DNA of 18,101 bases from Planctomycetota bacterium (GTDB lineage: Bacteria; Planctomycetota; UBA8108; UBA1146), in contig JAYZBV010000010.1 in NCBI GenBank assembly GCA_036338595.1, positions 1 through 18,101 on the forward strand, given 5' to 3'. Every line of letters starts with the position of its first letter. Position 1 is the first letter of the stretch. The notes beneath the pieces were generated by a model. That model saw only the letters and a list, made by a program, of their open reading frames with translations, did not search any database and was not told where the DNA came from. A program made the translations under genes and the position numbers. Positions 2,943 through 17,614 of the stretch are shown one piece after another.

Positions 2943-3935
2943 TCAGACCATCATCGGTAATACCCACAGGAAAGAACAGCCGAGCAGGCCAATCAGTGGC
3001 CCATCTGCTGTGTGTGGGCTGATGGCCTCTGCGACGGTCATCAGGATGGGCAAACAGATCAGTGCGATCGTCAACTGAGGCATCGTGAAATATGCGGAGT
3101 ACCAGAGCAACGCCAGCACGGTGACAATGAATACCATCGCACTTCCTTCAAGACTGCGGTGGTATTCTCCATTCCAGAACTTTCCGTCGTGCCAGATTGC
3201 TTTTGTCTTGTAGCGATGCTTGCCAAATCGAAGACCAACGGGCTCCGCAAGGCCATCACCGAACTCGTTCACGAGTTGAGGTATCAAGGTGATGATCTTG
3301 TTGTCGACGATGGCGATGAATGGCATGTAAATCAAAAATCTCAACACATCCTCGATCATGTCATAGCGCATGCTGTAGGGGCGATCTTCCAGGCGATCCC
3401 ACGAGATGAAGGCGAATCGAAAGATCGGTACCTGTCTTCGGATGACATTCCATTCGGTGAAGATGATCTTGAGCTGTTGTAGTGAGAAGAGGAACGCCGT
3501 ATCAAAGAGAATCTTGTCTCCCTCGACAAACAGGAACGGAATCACGAATGCTTGCAATTTTCGCCAGGGGCGCAGGCCTAGCTTTCGGACAAAATTGATC
3601 CGGATGTTGTATTTCATCACCAGGTGTGAGCAGAACACCTTGCCCATGAGTTCAAAGACTGCAGCTGCGAGGAAGAACTTGATGGCAGGAAGACTCAGGG
3701 TCGGGATCCATCCCTCGGTGGATGCCATCAGCATGCCGAGGGCCAGCATCAGGTAGGCGATTCCCGTGACGGCTACAAACCGGTCTTCGCCACTCCAGTC
3801 ATAATTCGAGTTTTCGAGGCCATAGGGATCTGCGTGGAGGGTCTTGAAGTATTTGTCTAGATCTTCGTGAATGTCCATCGGTCGCGATGGTGGAAGGGGG
3901 TGCGGCTGGTCTGGAGTTTTTTCTGGATCGGTCAT
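2943..3935 (-). CDS. Polytopic membrane enzyme of the phytol/dolichol kinase - cytidylyltransferase (CTP_transf_1-like) superfamily
   Basis: Multiple TM segments, with the signature GDGLAEPVGLRFGKHRY...RSLEGSAMVF and C-terminal AEAISPHTAD. GGAGG Shine-Dalgarno upstream of ATG 3935. Confidence 0.75.
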   Translation of the reverse strand: MTDPEKTPDQPHPLPPSRPMDIHEDLDKYFKTLHADPYGLENSNYDWSGEDRFVAVTGIAYLMLALGMLMASTEGWIPTLSLPAIKFFLAAAVFELMGKVFCSHLVMKYNIRINFVRKLGLRPWRKLQAFVIPFLFVEGDKILFDTAFLFSLQQLKIIFTEWNVIRRQVPIFRFAFISWDRLEDRPYSMRYDMIEDVLRFLIYMPFIAIVDNKIITLIPQLVNEFGDGLAEPVGLRFGKHRYKTKAIWHDGKFWNGEYHRSLEGSAMVFIVTVLALLWYSAYFTMPQLTIALICLPILMTVAEAISPHTADGPLIGLLGCSFLWVLPMMV

Positions 3936-4042: not shown

Positions 4043-6046
4043 TCACTGGTTCTTGTAGCAACGGATCTCAAAAACTCGGATCTGTTTGGATTGCTGCGTC
4101 TGGCTGATTTCAAGGCGAAGTGCCTGCACAGGGCCCGAATCGAGTCTGTGGCGGCGAAGTCTCAGGTAATTCTCCTCGGTCCTGACCACTTCACTGCGAA
4201 CGCCGTCTGCCGAAACGACGCTCACCACATACTCCTTGACCGTCTCGGGCTGGGGGCCTCGGATGATGTTCTTCGAGGCTGAATCAGAGGCGGATAACGT
4301 CAATTGACGGTGGAAGCCACTATCGAAAGTGATCTGAACCTCGTCGATCTGTACCGGAGTTTTCCAGCTCAACTCGATCCACTGACCCCCATCGACCATC
4401 TCTGCACCCCATCGATGCTCCCACTTGCCTGGAACATCTCTCACGATTCCATCGAGGATGTGAATCGGCTCAGCGCCATCAAGATGCGCAGAAGCAGTGA
4501 CGGTGGCAGATTGGGCGAGATCAGCGGGATCCTTGTTGGAAATATTCCTGATCGATTGATCATCCCTCAACAAGCGTTGCTGTAGCTCTCCAATGTGATG
4601 TTTCCTCAATACAGGAGGAGTCACACTCTTCTCGGTGCAGATGGCGGCAGCGGTTCCGATCGCTTGACCGGTGCACGCACAGGTTGCCATCACTCGTGTA
4701 GAGGTGAAGGCGACATGAGAGTTTGAAATGTTTCGTCCCGCCATCATCAGATTCTCGATGTTGCCGCTGAAGAGCGCTTCGAATGCGATGTTGTAGGGTT
4801 CCTTGATTGGCTTTGAATAAAAAGGAGGCTGGTCCCAGTCATCGAATCCTCCGGGGGGATGTTCATCGAAGGGCCAACCACCGATGGATACGCCATCATC
4901 TCGCAGTTTCCATCCGTCGGTCAGGTCATCTTGCGTCTGGATGTGCGCACCGGTGAGACGGCGGCTCTCACGCTTCCCGGGGATCATGCCAACTCGTTGA
5001 AGTGCCCAGTTGGCGGAGTCGGGCCGTTCACCGGAATTCTTGATCCAATCCCAGACTCCCATCACGATTCGTAGCAAGTCGAACCTCAACTCCTCATTGT
5101 CCTGAATTACATCGCGATCTCCGCCCAGCTCGATCCACCAGTATCCGTACTCGTAAGAACCCTTCGGGATCTTTCGAAACAGGAAGTCGTTTTCTGTCAT
5201 CTTTCGAGACCAGGGAGGAGCGAGAAAATCGATGGGGCTTTCATGTTTGGTCGCCGTGAACAGAATCGTGGCTCCCTGTGAGTTCTCGTCGCCCTTTTCC
5301 AGCGCCAGGGATTCGTTGTAGAGTGATCTAGGTTCGCGTCCCTTGCGAAAATCAGCACCTGCCTCGAGCGCGAGCCGGCAGTCGCCGGTGCAGTCACAAT
5401 AGGTACTCGCTTCGATGCGATAGATGGTTTCAGTCTTGTCACAACGAGCCATCACTCGAGTGATCTGGTTCTTGGATACTTCTGCAGAGTATACAGATGT
5501 ATCCAGTTTCAATGTGAGCAGCTCTTCTCGCTGGCACAGGTCATAAAGGGTCAGATCAAACAGTTCGAAGGAACGATGAGGATTTCTTCGAGCATCTTCG
5601 AGGCGGATTTCCTCAATCAGTCCACCTTCTCGCCAGCCGGATCGCTGACCATGAACATCGGCCCCAACGATGTGCATTCCTATTTCGCTGGAAGCGTTGC
5701 CTCCGAGGCGTGATCGGTCCTGTACCAGAAGGGTACGCGCGCCATTGCGAGCGGAAGCAAGAGCAGCACAAACTCCAGCCATTCCTCCGCCGGCAATCAG
5801 CACATCGACAGCAATGTCGATGATTCGCATGTGCTTTTCATCTACAGAAACCGACCCCAACTCGCTGGTCTTGTCGTCGGTGAAGGAGGATTCCTTGCTG
5901 TCGATGGGCGGGTGAGATGCAGAAACAAATCTTCTACCATCGATGGCCACGGATAGACCAGCCAGTAATCCGATCTGGCCGATGAAGTTCCTTCTGTCCA
6001 GAGCTGGAAATTCAGGCTCGGGAGTATCGGAGTCCAGATCGTTCAC
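4043..6046 (-). CDS. Tat-exported FAD-dependent oxidoreductase (FAD_oxidored/PF12831-like) with a C-terminal discoidin/galactose-binding-like domain
   Basis: N-terminal RRNFIG followed by a hydrophobic stretch (twin-arginine signal). Dinucleotide motif DVLIAGGGMAGVCAALASARNGA, plus LGGNASSEI, DCTGD, GKRESRR, NLMMAGRNIS and STRVMATC. C-terminal WIELSW..QIDEVQITFD...RVFEIRCY. The GTG start overlaps the upstream stop (GTGA). Confidence 0.85.
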   Translation of the reverse strand: MNDLDSDTPEPEFPALDRRNFIGQIGLLAGLSVAIDGRRFVSASHPPIDSKESSFTDDKTSELGSVSVDEKHMRIIDIAVDVLIAGGGMAGVCAALASARNGARTLLVQDRSRLGGNASSEIGMHIVGADVHGQRSGWREGGLIEEIRLEDARRNPHRSFELFDLTLYDLCQREELLTLKLDTSVYSAEVSKNQITRVMARCDKTETIYRIEASTYCDCTGDCRLALEAGADFRKGREPRSLYNESLALEKGDENSQGATILFTATKHESPIDFLAPPWSRKMTENDFLFRKIPKGSYEYGYWWIELGGDRDVIQDNEELRFDLLRIVMGVWDWIKNSGERPDSANWALQRVGMIPGKRESRRLTGAHIQTQDDLTDGWKLRDDGVSIGGWPFDEHPPGGFDDWDQPPFYSKPIKEPYNIAFEALFSGNIENLMMAGRNISNSHVAFTSTRVMATCACTGQAIGTAAAICTEKSVTPPVLRKHHIGELQQRLLRDDQSIRNISNKDPADLAQSATVTASAHLDGAEPIHILDGIVRDVPGKWEHRWGAEMVDGGQWIELSWKTPVQIDEVQITFDSGFHRQLTLSASDSASKNIIRGPQPETVKEYVVSVVSADGVRSEVVRTEENYLRLRRHRLDSGPVQALRLEISQTQQSKQIRVFEIRCYKNQ

Positions 6047-6627
6047 CTGGCAGCGATTTTCTTTGCAGTCTGTTTCTTTACCGACTTCTTCTTCGCGGCC
6101 TTCTTCTTGGTAGGAGATTTCCGTGTGGTTTTCTTTGCTGCTGGCTTCTTCTTGCCCGCCTTCTTCTTTGCAGCGTTTTTCTTTCTGGTGCTGGTCGCCG
6201 CATTTGTTGCTGAAACGAACTCCTTCATCGGAACCGATGCGATGGCTTCGGCGATCAGGTCATGTTCGCATTTCTCCCAGCTGGCAAGCCTTATGCAGCT
6301 CTTGCCGATGTCCAGTCGGGTGCCACGCTTCTTCCATTCGGTGGAGAGACGCTTGAAGACGCGCGGAATCACATAGATACCGCACATGTAGACGCCGTAA
6401 TGCCTTTTCTGGGATGCGATGGCTGCATACATCAGCGGTTCTCCATTGTAGGTATCAGGGCATTCAGAAAGAGGAACCTCGTAGCAGATGAATCCCCATC
6501 GCATCTGTTCCTTGTATCCCTTGGGCAGGTTTTTCCTGATCAAGGTGCGGAGTTTCTTGATGGTATCTCTGCGGTCCTCTGGCAGGGAATCGATGTATTC
6601 TTGTGGCGTTTTTGCCTGGCTTTGCAC
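6043..6627 (-). CDS. DUF1801 (YdhG-like) domain protein with a Lys/Ala-rich histone H1-like C-terminal tail
   Basis: TPQEYIDSLPEDRR..LRTLIRKNLP.GYKEQMRWGFICYEVPL...YNGEPLMYAAIASQKRHYGVY...LDIGKSCIR is typical of DUF1801. The tail reads KKNAAKKKAGKKKPAAKKTTRKSPTKKKAAKKK. AGGAGGT Shine-Dalgarno precedes GTG 6627. Confidence 0.85.
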   Translation of the reverse strand: MQSQAKTPQEYIDSLPEDRRDTIKKLRTLIRKNLPKGYKEQMRWGFICYEVPLSECPDTYNGEPLMYAAIASQKRHYGVYMCGIYVIPRVFKRLSTEWKKRGTRLDIGKSCIRLASWEKCEHDLIAEAIASVPMKEFVSATNAATSTRKKNAAKKKAGKKKPAAKKTTRKSPTKKKAAKKKSVKKQTAKKIAAR

Positions 6628-6780
6628 GACACCTCCTCTACAGACGCAGGATCGATCTGTAATGCCAGATTGTCCTCGATCCAGTTGGCATCTTCAACGA
6701 GCAGTTCCCTCTGTGTATGCTGACGCCACAAGCCACGATATGGATCGTCTTGTAGGTATGTTCATGAAGGGAGGAACACC

Positions 6781-6990
6781 ATGTCAAATTCTGATTCCGA
6801 TCCAGAATTCTGGACCTTGTTGCAAACCATTGCGGTCTTCGTGCTGGGGGCCTGGCTCATCGACTCCGGCCTGGACTGGTCTTCGACTCTTGCACTGAGC
6901 TATGAAGGGGGAGTGGCTCATGGGATGGCAAGAACCCTGGTTCTGCTTGTGGGGATCGCGGTCATCATCCTGAGGGTCCGGAGATCTTGA
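6781..6990 (+). CDS. Small 2-TM membrane protein (69 aa), first gene of the plsY-like run
   Basis: GGAGG Shine-Dalgarno (gggaggaacaccATG), two hydrophobic helices and a basic C-terminus (RVRRS). Confidence 0.65.
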   Translation: MSNSDSDPEFWTLLQTIAVFVLGAWLIDSGLDWSSTLALSYEGGVAHGMARTLVLLVGIAVIILRVRRS

Positions 6991-7063
6991 ACCGAGACAG
7001 AAAAACTGCACAGGTAATCACCTCGATTCGGTGCGCATCTCTTCTCGTGCACGGTGGCGACCT

Positions 7064-7642
7064 ATGACCCGCGAAGAGATCATCGGTATCGGTGTTGCTT
7101 ACCTGTTCGGAGGGTTCTGCACCGGTTACTTTCTCGTCCGCTTCAAGGCCAAACTCGACATTCGCGACCATGGGAGCCATGGAGTCGGGGCTCGAAATGT
7201 AGGTCGCGTTCTGGGTCGGGGCGGTTTTATTGTGACCCTGTTCGGGGATGCGCTGAAGGGCGCACTGGCGATCATCATCGCTCGCCATTTCGAGTTCTCC
7301 GAGATCGCGGTTTCTCTTGTCCTGGTGGCCGTGGTGGTGGGCCATATCTGGCCGTTTCTGCTGAACTTTCGTGGGGGACGCGGGATTGCCACGGCGTTTG
7401 GCGGCTACCTCGCACTCGATGTCCAGTTGGCCCTGTGGGTGCTGGTCTCGACAATTGTGTTGCTGGCTCTGGGTCGTGGCGTCATCTTGAGCGGTCTTGC
7501 GGCGTTTGCATTGTTGCCACTGATCGCCTTTGTGCTGGATCTTTCTGGTCACATCGTGGCTGCTCTGGCGGGCTGTTCAGTGGTTATTCTGTATGCGCAT
7601 AGACATCACCTTCGAGGAGCGCTACCGATCAAGGGAGAGTAA
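7064..7642 (+). CDS. plsY: PlsY-family acyl-phosphate-dependent acyltransferase (divergent paralog)
   Basis: Membrane protein with the PlsY layout: AYLFGGFCTG, DIRDHGSHGVGARNVGRVLG, DALKG, GHIWPFLLNFRGGRGIATAFG and C-terminal YAHRHHLR. The likely start is ATG 7064. The stop TAA (7640-7642) directly abuts the next ATG. Confidence 0.85.
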   Translation: MTREEIIGIGVAYLFGGFCTGYFLVRFKAKLDIRDHGSHGVGARNVGRVLGRGGFIVTLFGDALKGALAIIIARHFEFSEIAVSLVLVAVVVGHIWPFLLNFRGGRGIATAFGGYLALDVQLALWVLVSTIVLLALGRGVILSGLAAFALLPLIAFVLDLSGHIVAALAGCSVVILYAHRHHLRGALPIKGE

Positions 7643-9298
7643 ATGGGCTTGCTGGATGGGTTCACCTACAAGATCGCAGAGGAACCCTGGGAACTGGAAG
7701 CAGTCCACGCCCTGAACTACAGGACCTTCGTCGAGGAAATTCCTCAACACGAACCCAATGCAGATAGAATACTGACCGACAAATTCCACGAGGAAAACAC
7801 CTACATCATCTGCCTCAATGAAGAGAAACAGATCCTCGCCGGCATGATCGCCTTTCGAGATCAACGCCCCTTCTCCCTGGATGCGAAACTGGACGATCTC
7901 GATTCCTATCTTCCGGATGGTCGATCACTTTGTGAGATTCGACTGCTGGCGGTGGAACGAGATTACCGCTACACGAGAATCTCCCAGGGGCTCATCGCGC
8001 AACTTGTTCAGTACTCGACCGATTGCGGATATGACATGGCCGTGATCTCTGCCACCGTGCAGCAACTCAAGTTGTACAAGTACCTTGGCTTCGTCCCCTT
8101 TGGTCCCGTCGTTGGGCCCGAGGAAGCAAGATACCAGCCGATGTATTTGACGGTGGAGGCGTATCAGGAACTCAAAACCCGTTCGAGTTCTTTTGCCAGG
8201 GAATCGGTGGAGCTGACCAACGACGACACGATGGCCTTCAACTTTCTCCCGGGCCCCGTCGATTTTGCCAAACAGGTGCAGGATGCTTACAACGAAGCCC
8301 CTTGCTCTCATCGTGGCCAGGGGTTCGTGAGAGACTTCCAGAGGGTGCGCCAGTTGCTCTGTGAAATGTCGGGAGCAGGTCAGGTCCAGTTATTGATGGG
8401 ATCCGGCACGCTGGCCAACGATGCCATCGCGGCACAGTTGTCGCTGAAAGAAAGCACCGGACTGATTCTTGTCAGTGGCGAGTTTGGACGACGTCTTCAG
8501 AATCATGCCAGGGGTGCCAGGTTAAACTTTCACACGCTGGAGATTCAGGAGGGCCAGGCATTCGAGGCCAGAGACATCGAACAGGCTCTCGCCGATCACT
8601 CCGATATCGAGTGGATCTGGGGAACGCATTGCGAGACATCCACAGGGGTACTCAATGATATCGAGATGTACAAATCGATCTGTGCCTCGCGCAACATCCG
8701 GCTCTGCCTCGATTGCATCAGCTCTCTGGGAACGGTTCCGGTCGCTTTGGCGGGGGTCTACCTCGCCTCCGGGACCAGCGGCAAGGGCATGGCATCGATC
8801 GCGGGGCTGTCGATGGTGTTCCATCATCACGAGATTGTGCCGGCTCCAGAGAACATCCCGTGTGCACTGGATCTCGGGATTTACCAGCAGCACGAGGGCA
8901 TTCCATTCACCATCCAGTCCAATCTCGTGTATGCCTTGCTCGCTTCCTTACAGCGAGATGACTGGCAAAAGAGGTACGAGGATGTCAGCAGCTGGTCACG
9001 GAGTGTCCGACAGCAGTTGACGGAAATCGACTTACCCACCATGGCGCCCGACTCGTGCGCGATGCCGTCTGTTGTGACGATACCTCTGGATAAATCTCAT
9101 TCTTCGGAGGCCATCGGAGAGACACTGGGGAAGCATGGAATTCTCATCAGTTACAGAAGTGGTTATCTGCTCGAACGAAACTGGATTCAGGCGTGTAGGC
9201 TTGGCGAAGAAAGCAAGCCCGCAGAAAAACTGGTGCGTCTGCTGAAGAAAGAACTGAAGCGCTCGGATGTGCCGTCGGCTTCTCATCCGGGTCCCTGA
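7643..9298 (+). CDS. Two-domain protein: N-terminal GNAT-fold N-acyltransferase (N-acyl amino acid synthase/FeeM-LuxI-like) fused to a class V PLP-dependent aminotransferase
   Basis: Residues ~1-175: KIAEEPWELEAVHALNYRTFVEE...DKFHEENTY...CEIRLLAVERDYR...LYKYLGFVPFG. Residues ~195-551: FLPGPV, SHR, GSGTLAN, SGEFGRRL, HCETSTGVLND, LDCISS and SGTSGKG (PLP Lys381, nt 8783-8785), which resembles the PhnW/serine-pyruvate aminotransferase group. Confidence 0.85.
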   Translation: MGLLDGFTYKIAEEPWELEAVHALNYRTFVEEIPQHEPNADRILTDKFHEENTYIICLNEEKQILAGMIAFRDQRPFSLDAKLDDLDSYLPDGRSLCEIRLLAVERDYRYTRISQGLIAQLVQYSTDCGYDMAVISATVQQLKLYKYLGFVPFGPVVGPEEARYQPMYLTVEAYQELKTRSSSFARESVELTNDDTMAFNFLPGPVDFAKQVQDAYNEAPCSHRGQGFVRDFQRVRQLLCEMSGAGQVQLLMGSGTLANDAIAAQLSLKESTGLILVSGEFGRRLQNHARGARLNFHTLEIQEGQAFEARDIEQALADHSDIEWIWGTHCETSTGVLNDIEMYKSICASRNIRLCLDCISSLGTVPVALAGVYLASGTSGKGMASIAGLSMVFHHHEIVPAPENIPCALDLGIYQQHEGIPFTIQSNLVYALLASLQRDDWQKRYEDVSSWSRSVRQQLTEIDLPTMAPDSCAMPSVVTIPLDKSHSSEAIGETLGKHGILISYRSGYLLERNWIQACRLGEESKPAEKLVRLLKKELKRSDVPSASHPGP

Positions 9299-9445
9299 TC
9301 TGAAGACTCGAGACAGCAGACCTGGAGCCCGGTTTCTGTTACTCTCCGTTCGATGATTTTCATCTGCAAACTCCCGGCTACCGACTCTGAGTGCTGGTCT
9401 GCTTCCACCCCGAGTGCGCTGGCCAAAGCGGAACGGACCGAACCG

Positions 9446-11146
9446 ATGCGAGTTGGTATTCGGCCGCTGCTGCCGGAAGCAGTAGCACTGATCACGCTGC
9501 TTCCCCTGGCCCTGGCGATGTCGGCAGGATGTACTACCGACGATGTCCCTTCGACGGTAGGCGCAGAAGATCACCGATTTCTGGATGTGACCGATCAATC
9601 CGGGCTGACCCCGCAGCATCTTCAGGAAAAATCCAAGGATCGCTTCATGCCAGAGAGCATGACGGGCGGCGTAGTGCTGTTCGATTGCGATGGAGATGGC
9701 GATCTCGATCTCTATCACATCCGACACGGACTCACTTCCGATCGTTTCACCGCATCCGCTTCGGCGGGAAATCGACTCTACAGGCAAGATGACCACTGGC
9801 ACTTCACCGATGTCACGGAAACCTGTGGAGCTGCAGATCGTGGCTATGGGATGGGCGCAGCCGCTGGAGACATCGACAACGATGGAGACCTGGATCTCTA
9901 CATAGGAAATCTAGGACAAGATCGATTGTTGAGAAACGATGGGAGTGGGGTTTTCACCGATATCACGGAGGCATCCGGGATCGATGTGTCGGGTTGGAGC
10001 AGTTCGATCCTGTTTGCCGATATCGATGCGGATGGACACCTCGATATCTATGTCTGCCGTTATCTCGACTTCGATGAACAGGTGAGAATCAACGATTCTG
10101 CCGGGCGACCCGAATATCCGGCGCCAGGGATGTTTCGGGGAGCGCAGGATCAGCTGTTGCGAAATAACGGCGATGGATCCTTCGTCAACATCACCATCGA
10201 AGCTGGATTGAAACGGGCTTCCAGGGGACTCGGGGTAGTGGTCTCCGATCTGGATGCAGATGGAAACATCGATTTCTACATCGCAAATGATGGAGAACCC
10301 AACCAGGCGTGGATCGGCGATGGAGCCGGAGGATTTCGAGACGAGGCTCTTGCCATGGGACTGGCGGTCAACATCTTCGGTCAGCCGGAAGCGGGGATGG
10401 GCATCGCTCACGGCGACATCGATGACGATGGACTGGAAGACCTGATCGTGACACATCTGGTGAGCGAGTCGGACACCCTGTATCGCAATCTAGGTGACGG
10501 GAACTTCGAGGATGCGACCGGTTCTCGTGGGCTGGCTCATCCGACGCTGGATTACACGGGGTTCGGTTCGGCGCTCTTCGATGCAGATGGAGATGGAGAC
10601 CTGGATCTGGTCACGGTTCATGGCCGGGTGTTACGAGGATCCGAGCATCCTGGGGCCACGGGAGATGCGTACTGGAAGCGATACGCAGAGCAAGATCACC
10701 TCTTCATCAACGATGGTCGGGGCCGCTTCTTGCTCGATGCCAACAGCGGATTTTCCAGCAGGACAGCGGTGAGTCGTGGGCTAGCGATCGGCGACATCGA
10801 TAACGATGGGGATCTTGATGTCGTCATCGCCGAGGCGGATGGATCGCTACGACTCTGGAAAAACCAGTCGGAAGCCGCCCTTTGGTGGTTACTGGATGTC
10901 ATCGATGCCTCGACAAATCGGTGCGATACCGGCGCAGTCGTCGAGTTCCATCAGGGGGATGCAGTACACATCAGAAGAGTCGCTGGCGGCGGCAGCTATC
11001 TTTCTGCCAGCGACCTGCGCGTTTATTTTGCATCCACCGACGAAGTCACTCAATTGAAGGTACGCTGGAGCGATGGAGAACAAGAGCGATTTACGGTTCC
11101 AGCCCCTGGTCGAGTGAGCACCATCCGGAAGGGGGCCGGAGAATGA
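9446..11146 (+). CDS. CRTAC1-family FG-GAP repeat / ASPIC-UnbV protein, predicted lipoprotein
   Basis: Seven DxDxDGxxD repeats (DCDGDGDLDLY, DIDNDGDLDLY, DIDADGHLDIY, DLDADGNIDFY, DIDDDGLEDLI, DADGDGDLDLV, DIDNDGDLDVV). The C-terminal GAVVEF..RRVAGGGSYLSASDLRVYF..VRWSDG is ASPIC/UnbV-like. From ATG 9446 there is a signal peptide ending LAMSAG-C. Confidence 0.88.
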   Translation: MRVGIRPLLPEAVALITLLPLALAMSAGCTTDDVPSTVGAEDHRFLDVTDQSGLTPQHLQEKSKDRFMPESMTGGVVLFDCDGDGDLDLYHIRHGLTSDRFTASASAGNRLYRQDDHWHFTDVTETCGAADRGYGMGAAAGDIDNDGDLDLYIGNLGQDRLLRNDGSGVFTDITEASGIDVSGWSSSILFADIDADGHLDIYVCRYLDFDEQVRINDSAGRPEYPAPGMFRGAQDQLLRNNGDGSFVNITIEAGLKRASRGLGVVVSDLDADGNIDFYIANDGEPNQAWIGDGAGGFRDEALAMGLAVNIFGQPEAGMGIAHGDIDDDGLEDLIVTHLVSESDTLYRNLGDGNFEDATGSRGLAHPTLDYTGFGSALFDADGDGDLDLVTVHGRVLRGSEHPGATGDAYWKRYAEQDHLFINDGRGRFLLDANSGFSSRTAVSRGLAIGDIDNDGDLDVVIAEADGSLRLWKNQSEAALWWLLDVIDASTNRCDTGAVVEFHQGDAVHIRRVAGGGSYLSASDLRVYFASTDEVTQLKVRWSDGEQERFTVPAPGRVSTIRKGAGE

Positions 11147-12912
11147 TCACGCAATCGGGCAGGGCACACCTTCGTGGCATGCTCATCCCCTTGACGTTTC
11201 TGGTGCTACTGGTCGGTGGGTGGTGGGCGATCCGCCAGGCCGGCCCGGAGTTACCACCGATCGATCGACACGGCCTTCATCGGTCGGTAGAAATACGCCT
11301 GGATGAACTGGTCGAGCAACTGGCGGCATCTCCCACGGAGGCATCTTCATGGGGTGAGCTTGCTATATTGCTCGATCTTCACCAGCAACCCGCCGCAGCG
11401 ATCACCTGCTATCGAAAGGCGATGGAGATCGATCCGGCAGATGCACGCTGGCCCTACCTCGCTGGAATCTGTGCCAGCCTTGGAGATACCGATCAGGCAC
11501 TCCTCTTTTTCGAGATGGCTGCAATGACGATGCAGCATGCTCCACTGCCGATTCGCCAGGGCCAATTGCATCTGGGTCGAGGCGAAGTGGATCTTGCAAG
11601 AGATCTGTTCGAACAGGGAGTGCAGCTCGATGCCACCCTGATCCAGGGGCATCTCGGACTGGCGCGATGCGCCCTGGCCAGTGGCGATCCGGCCGAAGCC
11701 GCATCTCATCTGGATCGTTGCGAACAGTTGCAACCCTCTGCCGGAGAAGTCGCCAGTGCCCGAGCCATCTGGTGGCGATTGCAGGGAGACATGGAACGCG
11801 CCGCCAGCAGTCTCGAGGAAGCTGCTGACAAATTACCTCGTGAACCGTTGCCGGATGGCGTGCGACAGGATGCGGTGAACAGTCAGGGAGTGGGCCCCCG
11901 CTGGAGACGAGAACGCAGTCAGAGATGGTTGGTCTCGGGGCGAACCGACCAGGCAAGAGCTCTCTGGCAACAGGCGATCTCCGATGATCCCACCGATGCC
12001 ACGGCGAACCTGGAACTGGCGCATATAGCCCAGCTCCAGAACGATTATCCGCTAGCGCAGGCAAGCTACACCAGAGCAGCCGAGCTGGATCCTGACCTGG
12101 CGGCGGCGCATGCAGGTCTTGGAGTGCTGCAGATGCGAGGTCAATCGTTCGAAGCAGCAGAGAAGTCGTTTCGTCGGGCACTCGATCTCGATCCGGAATC
12201 GGCGCAGGTTCGAGCGAATCTGGGTTCATTGCTGGTGGCTACAGCCAGAGGCGCGGAGGGATTGCAACTACTGACCGATGCCTGCGAGCGGTTGCCAGAA
12301 GATACGGATCTACGATTCAATCTGGCGATGGCATACCGGAAACTGGAGCAGTGGCCAGAATCCAGCGATCAGTTCTCGGTGTTGCTCGATCTCGATCCCG
12401 ACCGCACCCGGGCGCGCTTCGAGTGGGGAGTGGTGCTGGCGCAGCTGCAACGATTTTCAGCCGCAGCCGATCAGTTCAAGATCGTTCTCGAGAGTGAGCC
12501 GGGCCGCGCATCGGTCTGGATGAATCTGACCCGAGCACAAGTGCGAGAGCAGCTTTACGGCGACGCACTCGCATCGCTTCGTTCGGCTCATGCTGCCGTA
12601 CCCGGCGACTGGCGCATCGCATCGGAGTTGGCGTGGCTGCTGGCCACCTGTCCCGATGAGCGCTGGCGAGACGGTTCGGAAGCCAGACAACTCGCTGCGA
12701 TCTTGTGTCAGAAACAAGGTCCCACTTATCCACGCTCCCTCGATGTCTGGGGTGCAAGCCTTGCGGAATGTGGTGAGTACGATGCCGCCATCGAGAAACT
12801 GCTGCTGGCCAAGAAATACCTCGACGAGCATCCCGAACTACCGCGGGATCCGGAGCTGGATGAGCGCCTGGCCGGATATCGCAGCGGCACCCCGTATCGA
12901 TTTGATCGCTAG
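11143..12912 (+). CDS. Membrane-anchored tetratricopeptide repeat protein
   Basis: ATG 11143 overlaps the upstream stop (ATGA). There is an N-terminal TM helix (LIPLTFLVLLVGGWW), many TPR units (AITCYRKAMEIDP, YTRAAELDP, FRRALDLDP, LLDLDP) and a C-terminal LAWLLATCPD..RDGSEA module. Confidence 0.85.
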   Translation: MITQSGRAHLRGMLIPLTFLVLLVGGWWAIRQAGPELPPIDRHGLHRSVEIRLDELVEQLAASPTEASSWGELAILLDLHQQPAAAITCYRKAMEIDPADARWPYLAGICASLGDTDQALLFFEMAAMTMQHAPLPIRQGQLHLGRGEVDLARDLFEQGVQLDATLIQGHLGLARCALASGDPAEAASHLDRCEQLQPSAGEVASARAIWWRLQGDMERAASSLEEAADKLPREPLPDGVRQDAVNSQGVGPRWRRERSQRWLVSGRTDQARALWQQAISDDPTDATANLELAHIAQLQNDYPLAQASYTRAAELDPDLAAAHAGLGVLQMRGQSFEAAEKSFRRALDLDPESAQVRANLGSLLVATARGAEGLQLLTDACERLPEDTDLRFNLAMAYRKLEQWPESSDQFSVLLDLDPDRTRARFEWGVVLAQLQRFSAAADQFKIVLESEPGRASVWMNLTRAQVREQLYGDALASLRSAHAAVPGDWRIASELAWLLATCPDERWRDGSEARQLAAILCQKQGPTYPRSLDVWGASLAECGEYDAAIEKLLLAKKYLDEHPELPRDPELDERLAGYRSGTPYRFDR

Positions 12913-13083: not shown

Positions 13084-13983
13084 ATGACACAACCCACCGA
13101 TAACAGCATCAGTTCGAGTCGTATTGGCATCGTATTCAGTCTGGCGCTGATGGTTCTGGTGAGTTTCGGATCTGCCGTCGTAGCAGCCGACACTCAGGGC
13201 CGTCCTGCAAAGGATCCGGTCGTCGGATCTTCCGGAGACGGCAAGCCCACGCCGGACTCTGCAGCCAGTGTTTTTCTGGGACCGATGGAAAAAGCATCGC
13301 TGGTGCTCATCACTGACCTCGAGAGCGCAAAGAGCTCCGTCACTTCCACCGATGGCAACGGCCAGTACAGGCTCCCCAAGGGCCTTCCCAGCACGGTCAT
13401 CTATGTTGCGACCAGAGGCCGGGTGTTCGACCTCAGTAGTGGGCGATTGACGGACTCCACGGTCATCCTGTCAGCAGTCCAGGTTCGTGGTGTGGCCGAT
13501 GACGATCCTCAGGTGAACATTCTCACGACTCTGGTGGCCGCACGTGCCAATGCCCTGGCCGGTCCCGCCTCGCGCGGCCCCTTCGCCCGCATTGCGATGC
13601 CATCTTCCATCCAGCAGGCAGAGCAAGAGGTACAAGATGCTCTCGCTGTTGCACTCATCGAGATGCGTCAAGATGAGAGCACGCTGGCTACCGAGAAGGA
13701 TCCTCGCGCCGATGGAACAGCAGGCCAGGCCCAGTTGATCCATGTCAGCATGGTGGTCAGCGAAGCCGCTTCTAGGAGAGTGGCCAGGGGCACCGATCCG
13801 GCGGTGGGAATCGAATCGATCATCGAGGATATGGTCCAGCAGATAGCAAACCTGGGTCGATTCGAATCGAGCCTGGTCCAGGAATTACGAGCTGCCGAGC
13901 AGAACATGAATGCGGTCCAGATGCTGCGCACGCTGCAGCAGGAGTTCGGTTTCGGGGCCAACCTGTTGCCCTTTTACCGATGA
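13084..13983 (+). CDS. Exported hypothetical protein
   Basis: AGGAG Shine-Dalgarno and a signal peptide (RIGIVFSLALMVLVSFGSAVVAA). A beta-rich segment GPMEKASL...TDGNGQY...VNILTTL is followed by a helical C-terminal half. Confidence 0.75.
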   Translation: MTQPTDNSISSSRIGIVFSLALMVLVSFGSAVVAADTQGRPAKDPVVGSSGDGKPTPDSAASVFLGPMEKASLVLITDLESAKSSVTSTDGNGQYRLPKGLPSTVIYVATRGRVFDLSSGRLTDSTVILSAVQVRGVADDDPQVNILTTLVAARANALAGPASRGPFARIAMPSSIQQAEQEVQDALAVALIEMRQDESTLATEKDPRADGTAGQAQLIHVSMVVSEAASRRVARGTDPAVGIESIIEDMVQQIANLGRFESSLVQELRAAEQNMNAVQMLRTLQQEFGFGANLLPFYR

Positions 13984-14262: not shown

Positions 14263-15264
14263 ATTCATCATCAACGCAGCTGGACAGCGGTTTTTGCGCT
14301 TCTTCTACTCGCCTCCTGTAGCCCGCTACCACGAAACGATTCATCCTTTTCCTGGCAAAGGGCCGAGGAGCGTTTGTCCGAAGGGTTGTTTCGACCGCAG
14401 CAGGATCCTCCGGAATATATCGTGATGGATGGTTATCCGGAAAGGTTCCAAACGGCTCTCGCATCTGGAATTGATGAGGCTCGCAGTTTCCTGGGAAACT
14501 ATGGTCCCGTCCGGGTCTATGTCTTTGGCGAACCCGGCGATGACGAGGCTTCCCGGCAGGCATTGAAAGATGTTGCCGAGTCCTACTGTCGAGCACGACG
14601 GGAAACGGCACTTCCTGGATTTGAAGAAGACTGCCTGGATGGTCCTGCCAAACGCCTGGTCGAGGTAGCAACATCAAGTGGTCAGGAAGCCTTTCTCTCG
14701 GCGGTCATCTTCACCGACCCACCGTTTGCCGAACTTATTTTTATCAATGCCGATCACTGGGGAGCCTCTGATTTACCGCTTCGAGGCATCCATGAATACA
14801 CTCATGTTTTCCAGCAAGCCCATAGAGAATCTCCCGGCTGGCTGATGGAAGGCGGAGCAGTCTTTTTCGAGGCATGGCTCGGCAGCGAGAGAGGCTGGGT
14901 GGACTTCCCGCGGGCGATGAAGAGGTCTATGCAGAGTGCCCAGACGGGGAGATCTGCAGGTCGCGGTCTCAAGGACATGGAATACACCCGAGACTTACCC
15001 GGAGAAATGGAACCCTTCCATCGCAGTATCGCTTACGACATGGGGGTCTGGGCCGTCACCTTTATCATCGCTCATTCCGAGACTGGAAGCATTGAGAGCT
15101 ATCGTGATGAGTTCTACCCGCTTTTGCAGGAACACGGCTGGAGAGTGGCGGTGGCGAAATATACGAGGACCAGTGACATCGATGAGTTTTATCAGCAGTT
15201 CGATGAGTTTCTGGCCATTCCATTACAAGAGCAGATGAAATTACTGGAAAACATCCGGCGCTGA
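14263..15264 (+). CDS. Putative gluzincin-type zinc metallopeptidase, predicted lipoprotein (start codon uncertain)
   Basis: HEYTH (14791-14805) followed by WLMEGGA gives HExxH plus a downstream Glu. The frame stays open upstream of the ORF-track TTG 14374 to 14251 and encodes HHQRSWTAVFALLLLAS-C (Cys 14317-14319). The only plausible start before this signal is ATT 14263. Confidence 0.7.
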   Translation: MHHQRSWTAVFALLLLASCSPLPRNDSSFSWQRAEERLSEGLFRPQQDPPEYIVMDGYPERFQTALASGIDEARSFLGNYGPVRVYVFGEPGDDEASRQALKDVAESYCRARRETALPGFEEDCLDGPAKRLVEVATSSGQEAFLSAVIFTDPPFAELIFINADHWGASDLPLRGIHEYTHVFQQAHRESPGWLMEGGAVFFEAWLGSERGWVDFPRAMKRSMQSAQTGRSAGRGLKDMEYTRDLPGEMEPFHRSIAYDMGVWAVTFIIAHSETGSIESYRDEFYPLLQEHGWRVAVAKYTRTSDIDEFYQQFDEFLAIPLQEQMKLLENIRR

Positions 15265-15392: not shown

Positions 15393-16832
15393 CTATCCGT
15401 TCTCGACCAGGTATTCCGGATCGTTCTCATCGAACTTCCGCTCGAACCGTTCCTCCATCGCCGGAGCAAAACGGCTGGCGACATGCTGCTCGTAGAGTTT
15501 CTCGTAACAACTCTCCTCCAGCACTCCCTGAAGCCCGCGGATCCTGTGTAGCAGATGATCGCGATCCGATTCCTCGAGGTGATTCACCGCATACGAGAGC
15601 AGGTTGCCCAGCGCATGCATCATCAAGGCCGGGTTCTGGATCATGTGGATTCGCTCGAGCACATTGTCGAAAGCAGCCCTCGTCGGCGGATCACTACTGA
15701 TGAAGAACCAGGTCTGCAGCAGCAGCGCCCGCGAACGCATCGGGAAGCAACCACGCTCCCCCGCCTCCTCGATGAGGCTACGAATGATCGCCCAGGCCAT
15801 GCGCAAATCATCCTGGAACAGCGCATAGGTGCCGAGTGCAATCTTGGTTTCCAGCAGGCCTTCATGACATGGAGGTTCAATGGTGCGGAAGAAGTCGAGC
15901 GCCTGCCGCAACAACCGCTCACCGTCCTCGTAACGCTCTTCCAGAGTCGCCAGCTCTCCTTCACGGAGGTACTGGAAGCCCTGTAAACGAGAATCACGGC
16001 TCGAGACATCGGGAAGCAGTTCAGAAGATGCCTCGAGTTCGGCTCTGGCAATATCCGACAGTTTGGAATCGAGGGCGCACTGTGCGGAGTTGAGGTAGTT
16101 GACCGCGAGTGTCGTCCAGTCGCATGTGTGGACAAGGCGGTTTCTCAAGTCGCTATCTTGCCAGATTTGAAGAGCCTGATCCGGTTGCCCTGATTCTCGG
16201 AGTAGTTTTGCGAAGATGAACTGAGAGCGAGTTGCGCAGCCAAAGTTCAATCCGGAAGCCGTAGAAAACACACGAGTCAATTTCTCATGAGCAGACTTGA
16301 AGTCGCCCATCATGAAGGCTGCTTCAGCCTGGACAAAGTCAAACAACGTTTCGCACCAGATGGACATCACTCCTGCTTCGATCACCGGCACATTTGCTTT
16401 GAATGCAGAGAGCAGCTCAGCAGTTTCACCCGCATGGCTCTGGTAATTGGAGCGGCGGCATTCCAGATAGATCGAGTAGAAATGTAGTGGTGAATTGTAA
16501 GGAAGGTAGTTCCGAATCGTCTGGTAATGGGTGCTGTGATTTCGAACTGATATCGAGAAGACGTTTTGCCGTTTCAGGAAATAGGCACAACAGATTTCTC
16601 TGGCGGTCATGGTCGGAGCGATGTCTGAATTCAAGAGAAGTGGAAGAATCTCATCGACGGTGGCAAATAGGCACTTCTCAGTAGCAGATAGAAAGTGGTC
16701 GGTGTCCCTGTAACCCAGTTTTGAAACGATGGTCGGGTGTTCCATCGCCATCGTGTGCCGTTGTTCCAGTCTGGAGAAGGCGATCCACGCCGCCTGTTGG
16801 TATGAGTCGGCTTCTGGAGTGCGGAGGCTCAT
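15393..16832 (-). CDS. Hypothetical alpha-helical (TPR-like) protein, 479 aa
   Basis: The true start is most likely ATG 16832 (MSLRTPEADSY...). It has a GGAGGT Shine-Dalgarno and overlaps the upstream stop (ATGA). The C-terminal two-thirds shows TPR-like helices (AKLLRESGQPDQALQIW, GELATLEERYEDGERLLRQALDFF). Confidence 0.72.
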   Translation of the reverse strand: MSLRTPEADSYQQAAWIAFSRLEQRHTMAMEHPTIVSKLGYRDTDHFLSATEKCLFATVDEILPLLLNSDIAPTMTAREICCAYFLKRQNVFSISVRNHSTHYQTIRNYLPYNSPLHFYSIYLECRRSNYQSHAGETAELLSAFKANVPVIEAGVMSIWCETLFDFVQAEAAFMMGDFKSAHEKLTRVFSTASGLNFGCATRSQFIFAKLLRESGQPDQALQIWQDSDLRNRLVHTCDWTTLAVNYLNSAQCALDSKLSDIARAELEASSELLPDVSSRDSRLQGFQYLREGELATLEERYEDGERLLRQALDFFRTIEPPCHEGLLETKIALGTYALFQDDLRMAWAIIRSLIEEAGERGCFPMRSRALLLQTWFFISSDPPTRAAFDNVLERIHMIQNPALMMHALGNLLSYAVNHLEESDRDHLLHRIRGLQGVLEESCYEKLYEQHVASRFAPAMEERFERKFDENDPEYLVENG

Positions 16833-17614
16833 GGCTGCACCTCCAGATCCAGAAATCCCCCGCCTGCGGTAGGCTGCCAGGAGATCTCGGTTCGCCAGTA
16901 GGTGGCGATACCGTTGGGGGGTTGTTCTTGACCGGTGAGAAGCAGGCAAACCCGTTTTCCCTCTCGCCAGGTCTTGAGATGGTCGATGCGGGTATCGGCT
17001 AGTTCGAGCCATTGCCGAAGCGGCAGCAACTCTGTCGGGGTCGCGCCCTCTTCCATCCAGTCGCACACCTGCAACAGCAGATCCAGCTCCTGAACCGACC
17101 CGATGATCGAAGCCGATCGTCGAGAGGCAGTCGCCGGGTACTCCTGCATGACAAAGGTATCCTCGGCCAGATCGGGCGGCGCCGTGTTGTCCTGGTGCAG
17201 GTAGCCCCAGCGAGAAACGCTGGTCGAAGGCAGCCACGGTCCATTCCCCAGGCCGAGCGGAGCCGGATCACCCTCGATGCGAATCGCACCGAGATAGACA
17301 TCGGAGCCGTTGGCGCTGACCACCCTGCTGAAGCGTAATCGGGTGATGTCATGTCGAGCCAGCAGGTGCGGCACCAGGTAGCCATCTCGCATCGACTTCA
17401 ACGAGTTCCCCATGCACATCATCTGCGGGGGAGTGGTGATCACTGTTTCGTCGGGTTCCCCGGGTCCCTGCCCCCATGAAACAGCGGGCAAGAGAACGAA
17501 ACTGGCGATCAAAAGAAAAAACACACGCATGGAAAGACATCGGACACGCGTCGGTCCCCGGACAGGGTTCCACGTGTCGGACCTCATGCGGTCAGACGAA
17601 ACGGTGCCACTCAT
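16829..17614 (-). CDS. Hypothetical exported/membrane-anchored protein
   Basis: GGGAGGT Shine-Dalgarno before ATG 17614 (alternative ATG 17530). Signal-like segment MRVFFLLIASFVLLPAVSWG-Q. It is translationally coupled to the downstream gene. No family was recognised. Confidence 0.65.
   Translation of the reverse strand: MSGTVSSDRMRSDTWNPVRGPTRVRCLSMRVFFLLIASFVLLPAVSWGQGPGEPDETVITTPPQMMCMGNSLKSMRDGYLVPHLLARHDITRLRFSRVVSANGSDVYLGAIRIEGDPAPLGLGNGPWLPSTSVSRWGYLHQDNTAPPDLAEDTFVMQEYPATASRRSASIIGSVQELDLLLQVCDWMEEGATPTELLPLRQWLELADTRIDHLKTWREGKRVCLLLTGQEQPPNGIATYWRTEISWQPTAGGGFLDLEVQP

Follow-up and report, generated by a model that had tools for sequence, protein, structure and literature searches.

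The window, an 18,101-nucleotide (nt) stretch of contig JAYZBV010000010.1 from a Planctomycetota bacterium (assembly GCA_036338595.1) that was analysed as a whole, encodes a putative two-gene operon consisting of a paralogue of the acyltransferase PlsY and a fusion of a GNAT-type N-acyltransferase with a class V aminotransferase. The plsY paralogue open reading frame (ORF) encodes 192 residues counted from its ATG, with an alternative in-frame GTG start at 7031. Its TAA stop codon (7640–7642) abuts the ATG at 7643 of the fusion ORF, which encodes 551 residues, leaving 0 nt between the two genes (Table 1). This junction had been reported in a preliminary description made from the sequence alone, and the ORF map, Pfam, and NCBIfam bear it out. 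It is proposed that the operon produces N,O-diacylserinol phosphate, a counterpart of phosphatidic acid with a serinol backbone and one amide and one ester linkage, a reading of sequence comparisons that is given a probability of about 0.5. The enzyme families involved are all known; the apparent novelty lies in a widespread PlsY paralogue whose acceptor site seems rebuilt and which is tied to an N-acyl-serinol-type synthase.

The two domains of the fusion are readily recognised. Residues 21–157 match FeeM (PF21926, 46.4 bits, cut-off 27), PF13444 (30.7 bits), and several further GNAT families, and residues 222–393 match Aminotran_5 (PF00266). An AlphaFold2 model, with a mean predicted local distance difference test score (pLDDT) of 86, contains two compact domains joined by a disordered linker at residues 187–205. 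The aminotransferase domain most resembles the 2-aminoethylphosphonate (AEP) transaminases PhnW/AepZ (PDB 7e7g, 1m32, 9kk8), which provide the best sequence, profile, and fold matches of residues 200–540. AEP:pyruvate aminotransferase 7e7g is both the best PDB sequence match (4.5e-18) and the top Foldseek match (TM-score 0.84, normalised to the target). In an alignment of 26 sequences, K381 and D357 are invariant and align with the pyridoxal 5'-phosphate (PLP) lysine and aspartate of AEP transaminases, including 7e7g. K381 is the predicted PLP Schiff-base lysine, noted earlier as intact, and, with the aspartate and the fold, places the domain by sequence and model among the class V (fold type I) PLP aminotransferases. 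However, the fusion differs from PhnW/AepZ in carrying an acyltransferase domain and in scoring well under the family cut-offs. Its best NCBIfam family, TIGR03301 (PhnW-AepZ), gives 135.6 bits against a cut-off of 360.8, and other PhnW-type profiles likewise fall below their equivalog cut-offs (TIGR02326, 89.8 vs. 400.8; NF010006, 90.3 vs. 296). One further structure, PDB 9os7, matches residues 198–393 and was rejected as irrelevant, being a Mycoplasma Met-tRNA synthetase with ancillary domains. In the ESM Atlas, many clusters from Bacillota and Verrucomicrobiota show the FeeM and Aminotran_5 architecture.

Linkage and fusion of the two genes

A scan of one genome per species returned 37 loci with relatives of the fusion. 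Most belong to Kiritimatiellales/Pontiella (66–74% identity) and the rest to metagenome-assembled genomes (MAGs) labelled Planctomycetota, Verrucomicrobia (50%), Gemmatimonadaceae (45%), and Bacillaceae (46%). By tblastn, every one of the 30 loci with upstream DNA of about 350 nt or more has plsY directly upstream of the fusion; in the remaining seven the fusion is preceded by no more than 186 nt, or only its C-terminal part is present. The full-length fusion was also found in 12 genomes of a 301-genome Verrucomicrobiota sample, with plsY directly upstream in every case. Ten of these are additional loci, and the other two, G301 (L012) and G436 (coordinates of L021), are also in the 37-locus set. 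This adjacency is far above chance. Across the 37 loci plsY is common to 30 and the fusion to 36, unlike the flanking genes, which are shared only by the closest kin, and hence the unit is a two-gene cassette. Taxa with the pair or a single-chain form of it are Verrucomicrobiota (among them Kiritimatiellales), Planctomycetota, and Gemmatimonadota, besides MAGs labelled Bacillota. Carriers that are in culture include Pontiella agarivorans, 'Verrucomicrobia bacterium S94', Pontiellaceae B1224/B12219/B12227, and Desulforhopalus singaporensis.

The linked gene is a second copy in its genome. The window genome (2.9 Mb, 114 contigs, 88% complete, 7% contamination) encodes another PlsY on contig 37 that scores 145.4 bits in the genome scan against 123.6 for the window copy. 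Its motifs are canonical and gpsA follows it, as is classic for plsY, so that the earlier designation of the window gene as a paralogue is correct. PlsX and one CdsA are encoded elsewhere in the genome. Exactly two PlsY matches were present in all eight pair-carrying genomes checked, a housekeeping copy at 145–188 bits and a linked copy at 113–133 bits. Conversely, eight of eight checked genomes with no plsY adjacent to the fusion (seven) or to the GNAT part alone (G009) have a single PlsY match. The preliminary description had allowed that the adjacency might not be conserved and that this gene might be the only, ordinary glycerol-3-phosphate acyltransferase; with linkage at 30/30 and 12/12 loci and a housekeeping copy present, neither is the case. 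The co-occurrence of the fusion with a second plsY, which it had proposed to examine, thus holds among the pair carriers, with exceptions among Planctomycetota that are weighed below.

As judged from domain composition, nothing speaks more strongly for a shared pathway of the PlsY paralogue and the fusion than their single-chain forms. When the window PlsY was run in a full HMMER search against 1.84 billion cluster representatives, 11,546 matches at E ≤ 0.001 were obtained, 43 of them at E ≤ 1e-30. Among the best 150 matches, P0186 (768 residues) and P0231 (734 residues) contain PF02660, FeeM, and Aminotran_5 in one chain. PF02660 with FeeM recurs in 11 of the 120 best relatives of P0186, in proteins of 756–884 residues labelled Nibricoccus sp. 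and Verrucomicrobia. In genome G343 all three domains lie in one stop-free 739-residue frame on a 371-kb contig. A separate search for longer homologues of the window PlsY returned one 580-residue protein only. In L033 and L044, the long frames found upstream of the PlsY domain were rejected as fusions: they contain no domains, and the L033 frame overlaps a porin gene on the opposite strand. A predicted complex of the GNAT domain (residues 1–190) with the PlsY paralogue scored 0.00 and gives no verdict either way.

The acceptor pocket of the PlsY paralogue

The paralogue matches Pfam PF02660 (G3P_acyltransf) at 123.9 bits against a cut-off of 24.1 and misses the NCBIfam equivalog cut-offs for PlsY (TIGR00023, 110.3 vs. 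137.2; NF001254, 115.2 vs. 199). Its residues 11–185 align to Aquifex PlsY 5xj5, in which PDB chain numbers equal the residue number plus one. As described in PMC5700162, Aquifex PlsY clamps the phosphate of glycerol-3-phosphate with S35, R45, K104, and N180 and binds the 2-OH through S142 and H177. The acyl-phosphate site comprises H92, the backbone of residues 104–107, and the T41 hydroxyl, and N37 is the probable oxyanion stabiliser (PMC5700162). N37, T41, T44, K104, and N180 are conserved in 86–95% of 7,288 homologues and S142 in 53%, and residual activity is 0.95% for N180H, 25% for K104R, and 6.9% for H92N (PMC5700162, Table 2).

Against this template the window paralogue retains S35, R45, H92, and H177 and carries N37G, T41R, T44G, K104R, S142G (with a Ser one position earlier), and N180H. 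In window numbering, motif 1 keeps S38 and R48 (Aquifex S35 and R45) and has G40, R44, and G47 in place of N37, T41, and T44. Motif 2 has R106 for the clamp residue K104, G144 stands at the position of S142, and motif 3 keeps H179 (Aquifex H177) and has H182 for the phosphate-clamp N180. The Aquifex glycerol-3-phosphate pocket is thus incomplete, with S35, R45, and H177 present and K104, N180, and S142 exchanged. In the acyl-phosphate site, H92 and the GG-x-G phosphate-hole loop are retained and T41 is replaced by Arg. The paralogue accordingly shares its family and a whole-length alignment with the Aquifex aeolicus enzyme (5xj5–5xj9), but differs in being a second copy that always adjoins or is fused with the GNAT-aminotransferase, in six pocket changes, and in its sub-equivalog score.

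These changes extend beyond the window. Linked copies of Kiritimatiellales read GSGGVGARNVGR / FRGGRGIAT / ILSGL / AHRERIR, whereas the housekeeping copies of the same genomes have the canonical motifs GSGNIGATNVFR / FKGGKGVAT / SLASI / LHRxNIK. Among the 150 nearest cluster representatives, Gly44 occurs in 114, Gly142 in 111, Arg or Lys at position 41 in 95, and a residue other than Asn at position 37 in 107. The phosphate- and acyl-phosphate-binding framework therefore appears to be preserved, while the surroundings of the acceptor C2 seem to have been rebuilt, as would be expected if the 2-OH had become an amine or amide. In G166 and two related MAGs (L049/L004/L005), the sister lineage of the window, the linked PlsY has Asn at the position of Aquifex H92 (VVGNVWP); the window keeps His.

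The pocket also bears on a reading in which N-acyl serinol or its phosphate is the end product, as a signal or minor lipid, and the linked PlsY is a co-regulated isozyme that still acylates glycerol-3-phosphate. K104 and N180 are kept by most of the wider linked class, and no serinol phospholipids are reported from cultured Pontiella (PMC7356697). N-acyl serinol is also the sole demonstrated product for this architecture (PMC13012048). Triple fusions and strict adjacency are hard to explain for an unrelated isozyme, however, and all eight carriers checked already have a canonical PlsY. Furthermore, the window His at the N180 position is the mutation that leaves 0.95% activity in the Aquifex enzyme. 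An end product of this kind is considered improbable.

Proposed route to a serinol-backbone phospholipid

In the first step of the proposed route, the PhnW-like domain would transaminate dihydroxyacetone phosphate (DHAP) to serinol phosphate, probably with an amino donor of the alanine/pyruvate type. Cj1437 of Campylobacter jejuni is a DHAP aminotransferase that makes serinol phosphate. The same reaction, named in the preliminary description for RtxA of rhizobitoxine biosynthesis, is confirmed for the N-terminal domain of the Bradyrhizobium elkanii enzyme in PMC3222319. The alternative is that the amine is AEP, phosphoethanolamine, or phosphoserine, N-acylated by the GNAT domain, and that the PlsY paralogue has another lipid acceptor. 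In family, sequence, and fold alike, the domain matches AEP transaminases best, yet the PhnW scores lie far below their cut-offs (135.6 vs. 360.8; 89.8 vs. 400.8). In addition, phosphoenolpyruvate (PEP) mutase (TIGR02320) was found in none of six carrier genomes (G000 being 88% complete), with a Bacteroides control above the cut-off, making a phosphonate route unlikely. The acceptor of a PlsY-type enzyme must bear a phosphate as well as a free hydroxyl, and AEP, phosphoethanolamine, and phosphoserine would have no hydroxyl left once N-acylated, so that linkage and fusions would go unexplained. Among the plausible phospho-amine products of a PhnW-like enzyme, serinol phosphate, the amino counterpart of glycerol-3-phosphate, would hence be the sole fit, and these other amines are the least probable of the alternatives considered. 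The literature on PhnW phosphonate-binding residues yielded nothing usable.

In the second step, as suggested by its family, the FeeM-type GNAT domain would N-acylate serinol phosphate from acyl-acyl carrier protein (acyl-ACP) to give N-acyl-serinol phosphate. In the third, the membrane-bound PlsY paralogue would esterify the free hydroxymethyl group, yielding N,O-diacylserinol phosphate; linkage, natural fusions, and the altered pocket point to this role. The acyl-phosphate for this step would be supplied by PlsX, and the product could enter head-group pathways via CdsA. The earlier statement that the lipid is made by just two genes stands as a proposal, with the would-be acyl-phosphate supplier encoded elsewhere. 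One Verrucomicrobiota genome, G340, has the order plsY2 - fusion - cdsA2 on the same strand, the CdsA-family gene (L068 4836–5495, the same gene as L079 36–698) being one of two CdsA matches in that genome. The scheme resembles the ornithine-lipid pathway, in which OlsB and OlsA, or the fused OlsF, perform GNAT-type N-acylation followed by O-acylation by a glycerolipid-type acyltransferase. It differs in that the ornithine-lipid O-acyltransferase is PlsC-like and acts on a hydroxy-fatty acid, and that pathway has neither an aminotransferase nor a phosphate backbone.

Soluble amines are the acceptors of FeeM-type synthases. The N-acyl serinol synthase of Gemella is presumably a two-domain enzyme (N-acyl synthase plus aminotransferase), although no printed statement that it has two domains was found. 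The window fusion has this presumed hm-NAS-type architecture, a FeeM/PF13444-type N-acyl synthase domain at the N-terminus fused to an aminotransferase. According to PMC13012048, E. coli by itself makes no N-acyl amides and a single nas gene of Gemella haemolysans M34 is enough for N-oleoyl serinol in E. coli, which agrees, as far as it goes, with the preliminary description of commensal N-acyl serinol synthases. In the window a PlsY paralogue directly abuts the synthase gene at the translational level, and such a paralogue is apparently no part of the system as published there.

The same product could arise in a different order. The paralogue would first O-acylate serinol phosphate, or DHAP with subsequent transamination of the acyl-DHAP, and the GNAT domain would then N-acylate the lyso-lipid. 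The altered contacts on the 2-OH side (S142G and changes around T41/T44) fit any acceptor modified at C2, and the PlsY, GNAT, aminotransferase domain order of the triple fusions is uninformative on step order. Fusions without a paralogue are common, seven of ten in Planctomycetota, and the Gemella gene alone gives N-acyl serinol (PMC13012048), indicating that the GNAT domain must accept a soluble amine, as family members do, and favouring N-acylation before O-acylation. An FAD-linked oxidase gene directly upstream of the Pontiellaceae plsY was considered as an alkyl-DHAP synthase and rejected, as it is a relative of p-cresol methylhydroxylase/vanillyl-alcohol oxidase. It groups with FadL and sensor genes and is hence an unrelated neighbour. 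O-acylation first is the likeliest of the three alternatives and is still thought unlikely.

In genomes that lack the paralogue, the fusion by itself would produce N-acyl-serinol phosphate, or N-acyl serinol after dephosphorylation. Phosphatase-type genes occur near some fusions. A calcineurin-like phosphoesterase gene directly follows the fusion in G162 (L040 2239–3174), a Metallophos (calcineurin-like) gene lies two genes downstream at the linked locus of G240 (L044 4180–5586), and a HAD hydrolase gene lies two genes upstream in G003 (L043 9864–10892). Such neighbours could dephosphorylate N-acyl-serinol phosphate.

Several observations weigh against N,O-diacylserinol phosphate as the product of the cassette. 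In a 301-genome Planctomycetota sample, ten genomes have both fusion domains and only three (G000, G166, G240) have an adjacent PlsY; the other seven have neither an adjacent plsY nor a second PlsY, and the neighbours of their fusions are unrelated. The paralogue is therefore not required for the fusion to work. The fusion tree requires three gains or losses of linkage, with its deeper nodes unresolved and a core clade of 12 uniformly linked. About 20 of the 301 Planctomycetota genomes hold two or more PlsY matches, and unlinked second copies with unrelated neighbours exist in other families of the phylum (G135, G184, G217, G031; loci L061–L064). These copies adjoin SpoIIE-type phosphatase genes (G135, G184), a DegV (fatty-acid-binding) gene (G031), or DTW-domain and alpha/beta-hydrolase genes (G217), and were rejected as part of the system, belonging to a different, more divergent class (88–107 bits). 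Within the pocket, K104 is retained in 136 and N180 in 98 of the 150 nearest representatives, so that K104R and N180H/R mark the subclade of the window and not the whole linked class. The nearest families of the aminotransferase domain are AEP transaminases, with no known DHAP aminotransferase among them, and a tblastn search over all loci gathered found a CdsA neighbour only at the G340 cassette. [quoted passage not shown] The fusion is present in one MAG with the label P. desulfatans (L031); if these strains carry the cassette, its products must be minor under those conditions or have gone unrecognised.

Phospholipids are taken to be built on glycerol or on sphingoid bases. It was not until 2025 that a serinol backbone was described, apparently as chemistry only, in the 'serinophospholipids' of Limisphaera ngatamarikiensis (Vyssotski et al. 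2025, as cited in PMC13388977). Their diacylated serine-derived backbone corresponds to the product class predicted here, and the citation supports the serinol phospholipids noted earlier from a thermophilic verrucomicrobium. No paper was found in which serinol-backbone phospholipids are assigned genes or PlsY is connected with serinol, in line with the earlier claim that no gene set had been described; the 2025 paper describing the lipids lay outside this search and may bear on the claim. A 2026 paper on new Limisphaera species does not mention such genes. Of the serinol-lipid pathway as first put forward, the joint action of the two genes gains support from the triple fusions, the altered pocket, the lack of PEP mutase matches, and cdsA2 of G340, whereas substrate, step order, and product are inferred. 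It is tentatively suggested, with considerable doubt, that the cassette is the missing entry to serinophospholipids, a 'third type' of phospholipid, with a re-tuned PlsY paralogue and a DHAP-aminotransferase/N-acyl synthase replacing GpsA, PlsY, and PlsC. If so, membrane lipids with a serinol backbone would be far more widespread among marine and soil bacteria than the single thermophile of origin implies. Should the pair make N,O-diacylserinol phosphate, it would offer both a compact, directly testable genetic basis for the class and a marker gene for such lipids in marine and soil bacteria. PlsY, thought to be locked to glycerol-3-phosphate, would have a widespread paralogue with another acceptor, and the N-acyl serinol signals of the gut microbiome would be tied to a membrane-lipid pathway.

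Flanking genes, occurrence and probable transfer

The features of the window, which has a GC content of 0.52–0.60, are listed in Table 1.

Table 1. Position and basis of assignment of features in the window.
Feature	Position	Strand	Basis
Presumed promoter region of the two-gene operon	6628..7063	+	Intergenic, between divergent DUF1801 gene and plsY paralogue; ORF map and Pfam; promoter inferred
PlsY-family acyl-phosphate acyltransferase paralogue ('PlsY2'), 192 aa	7064..7642	+	PF02660 profile, alignment to 5xj5
PlsY motif 1, aa 37-48, GSHGVGARNVGR	7172..7207	+	Alignment to Aquifex PlsY 5xj5, comparison with housekeeping copies
PlsY motif 2, aa 102-108, FRGGRGI	7367..7387	+	Alignment to 5xj5, comparison with housekeeping copies
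PlsY motif 3, aa 179-184, HRHHLR	7598..7615	+	Alignment to 5xj5, comparison with housekeeping copies
Fusion protein, 551 aa: FeeM-type GNAT N-acyl synthase and class V aminotransferase (predicted)	7643..9298	+	Profiles, alignment, model
FeeM/GNAT N-acyltransferase domain, aa 1-186	7643..8200	+	PF21926, PF13444; compact alpha/beta domain in model
Disordered interdomain linker, aa 187-205	8201..8257	+	pLDDT <50 in model
Class V (PhnW-like) aminotransferase domain, aa about 206-541	8258..9265	+	TIGR03301, 7e7g sequence and fold match
K381 codon, predicted PLP Schiff-base lysine	8783..8785	+	26/26 invariant; aligns to SGK lysine of 7e7g
D357 codon	8711-8713	+	26/26 invariant; aligns to PLP aspartate of AEP transaminases
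DUF1801 gene, upstream	6043-6627	-	Pfam
FAD_oxidored/DUF7402 gene, upstream	4043-6046	-	Pfam
FG-GAP/ASPIC gene, downstream	9353-11146	+	Pfam
TPR gene, downstream	10882-12912	+	Pfam

The FG-GAP/ASPIC and TPR ORFs overlap by ~265 nt when taken from their first possible start codons, and the true start of the TPR gene is probably further downstream than listed. Four further long ORFs of 296–614 residues, 2943–3935(-), 13084–13983(+), 14374–15264(+), and 15393–17237(-), match no Pfam or NCBIfam family, the last having a weak TPR_12 match, and are common only to the closest relatives. The flanking genes as a whole are likewise shared only with the closest relatives (L003, L004, L019, L020), with single ORFs also in L005 and L038. 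A scan of 6400–9600 for sigma-70 consensus sequences and terminators gave nothing above shuffled sequences, and the window contains no tRNA genes or Rfam matches.

No sequencing run carrying cassette DNA is recorded as RNA; in one run, guessed to be RNA, three contigs match 8142–8798 at 95–99% identity, which is no evidence of expression. Cassette DNA is present in 19 DNA runs of marine or seawater origin, drawn from seven studies.

The window fusion is 92% identical to that of a MAG labelled Bacillota (L003), 72–74% to those of four Planctomycetota-labelled MAGs, and 66–72% to those of Kiritimatiellales, and its identity to other fusions of its own phylum is at most 51%. The cassette is also present in none of five other genomes of the family of the window. 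Taken together, identities of 66–74% to Kiritimatiellales against at most 51% within the phylum and the 0/5 count in the family suggest that the two-gene unit as a whole passed laterally between Kiritimatiellales and this planctomycete lineage, a transfer that may have run in either direction. L003 ('Bacillota bacterium MAG 7') is the nearest relative of the window and has the same flanking genes, and all other close kin are labelled Planctomycetota; its Bacillota label is probably a binning or naming error.

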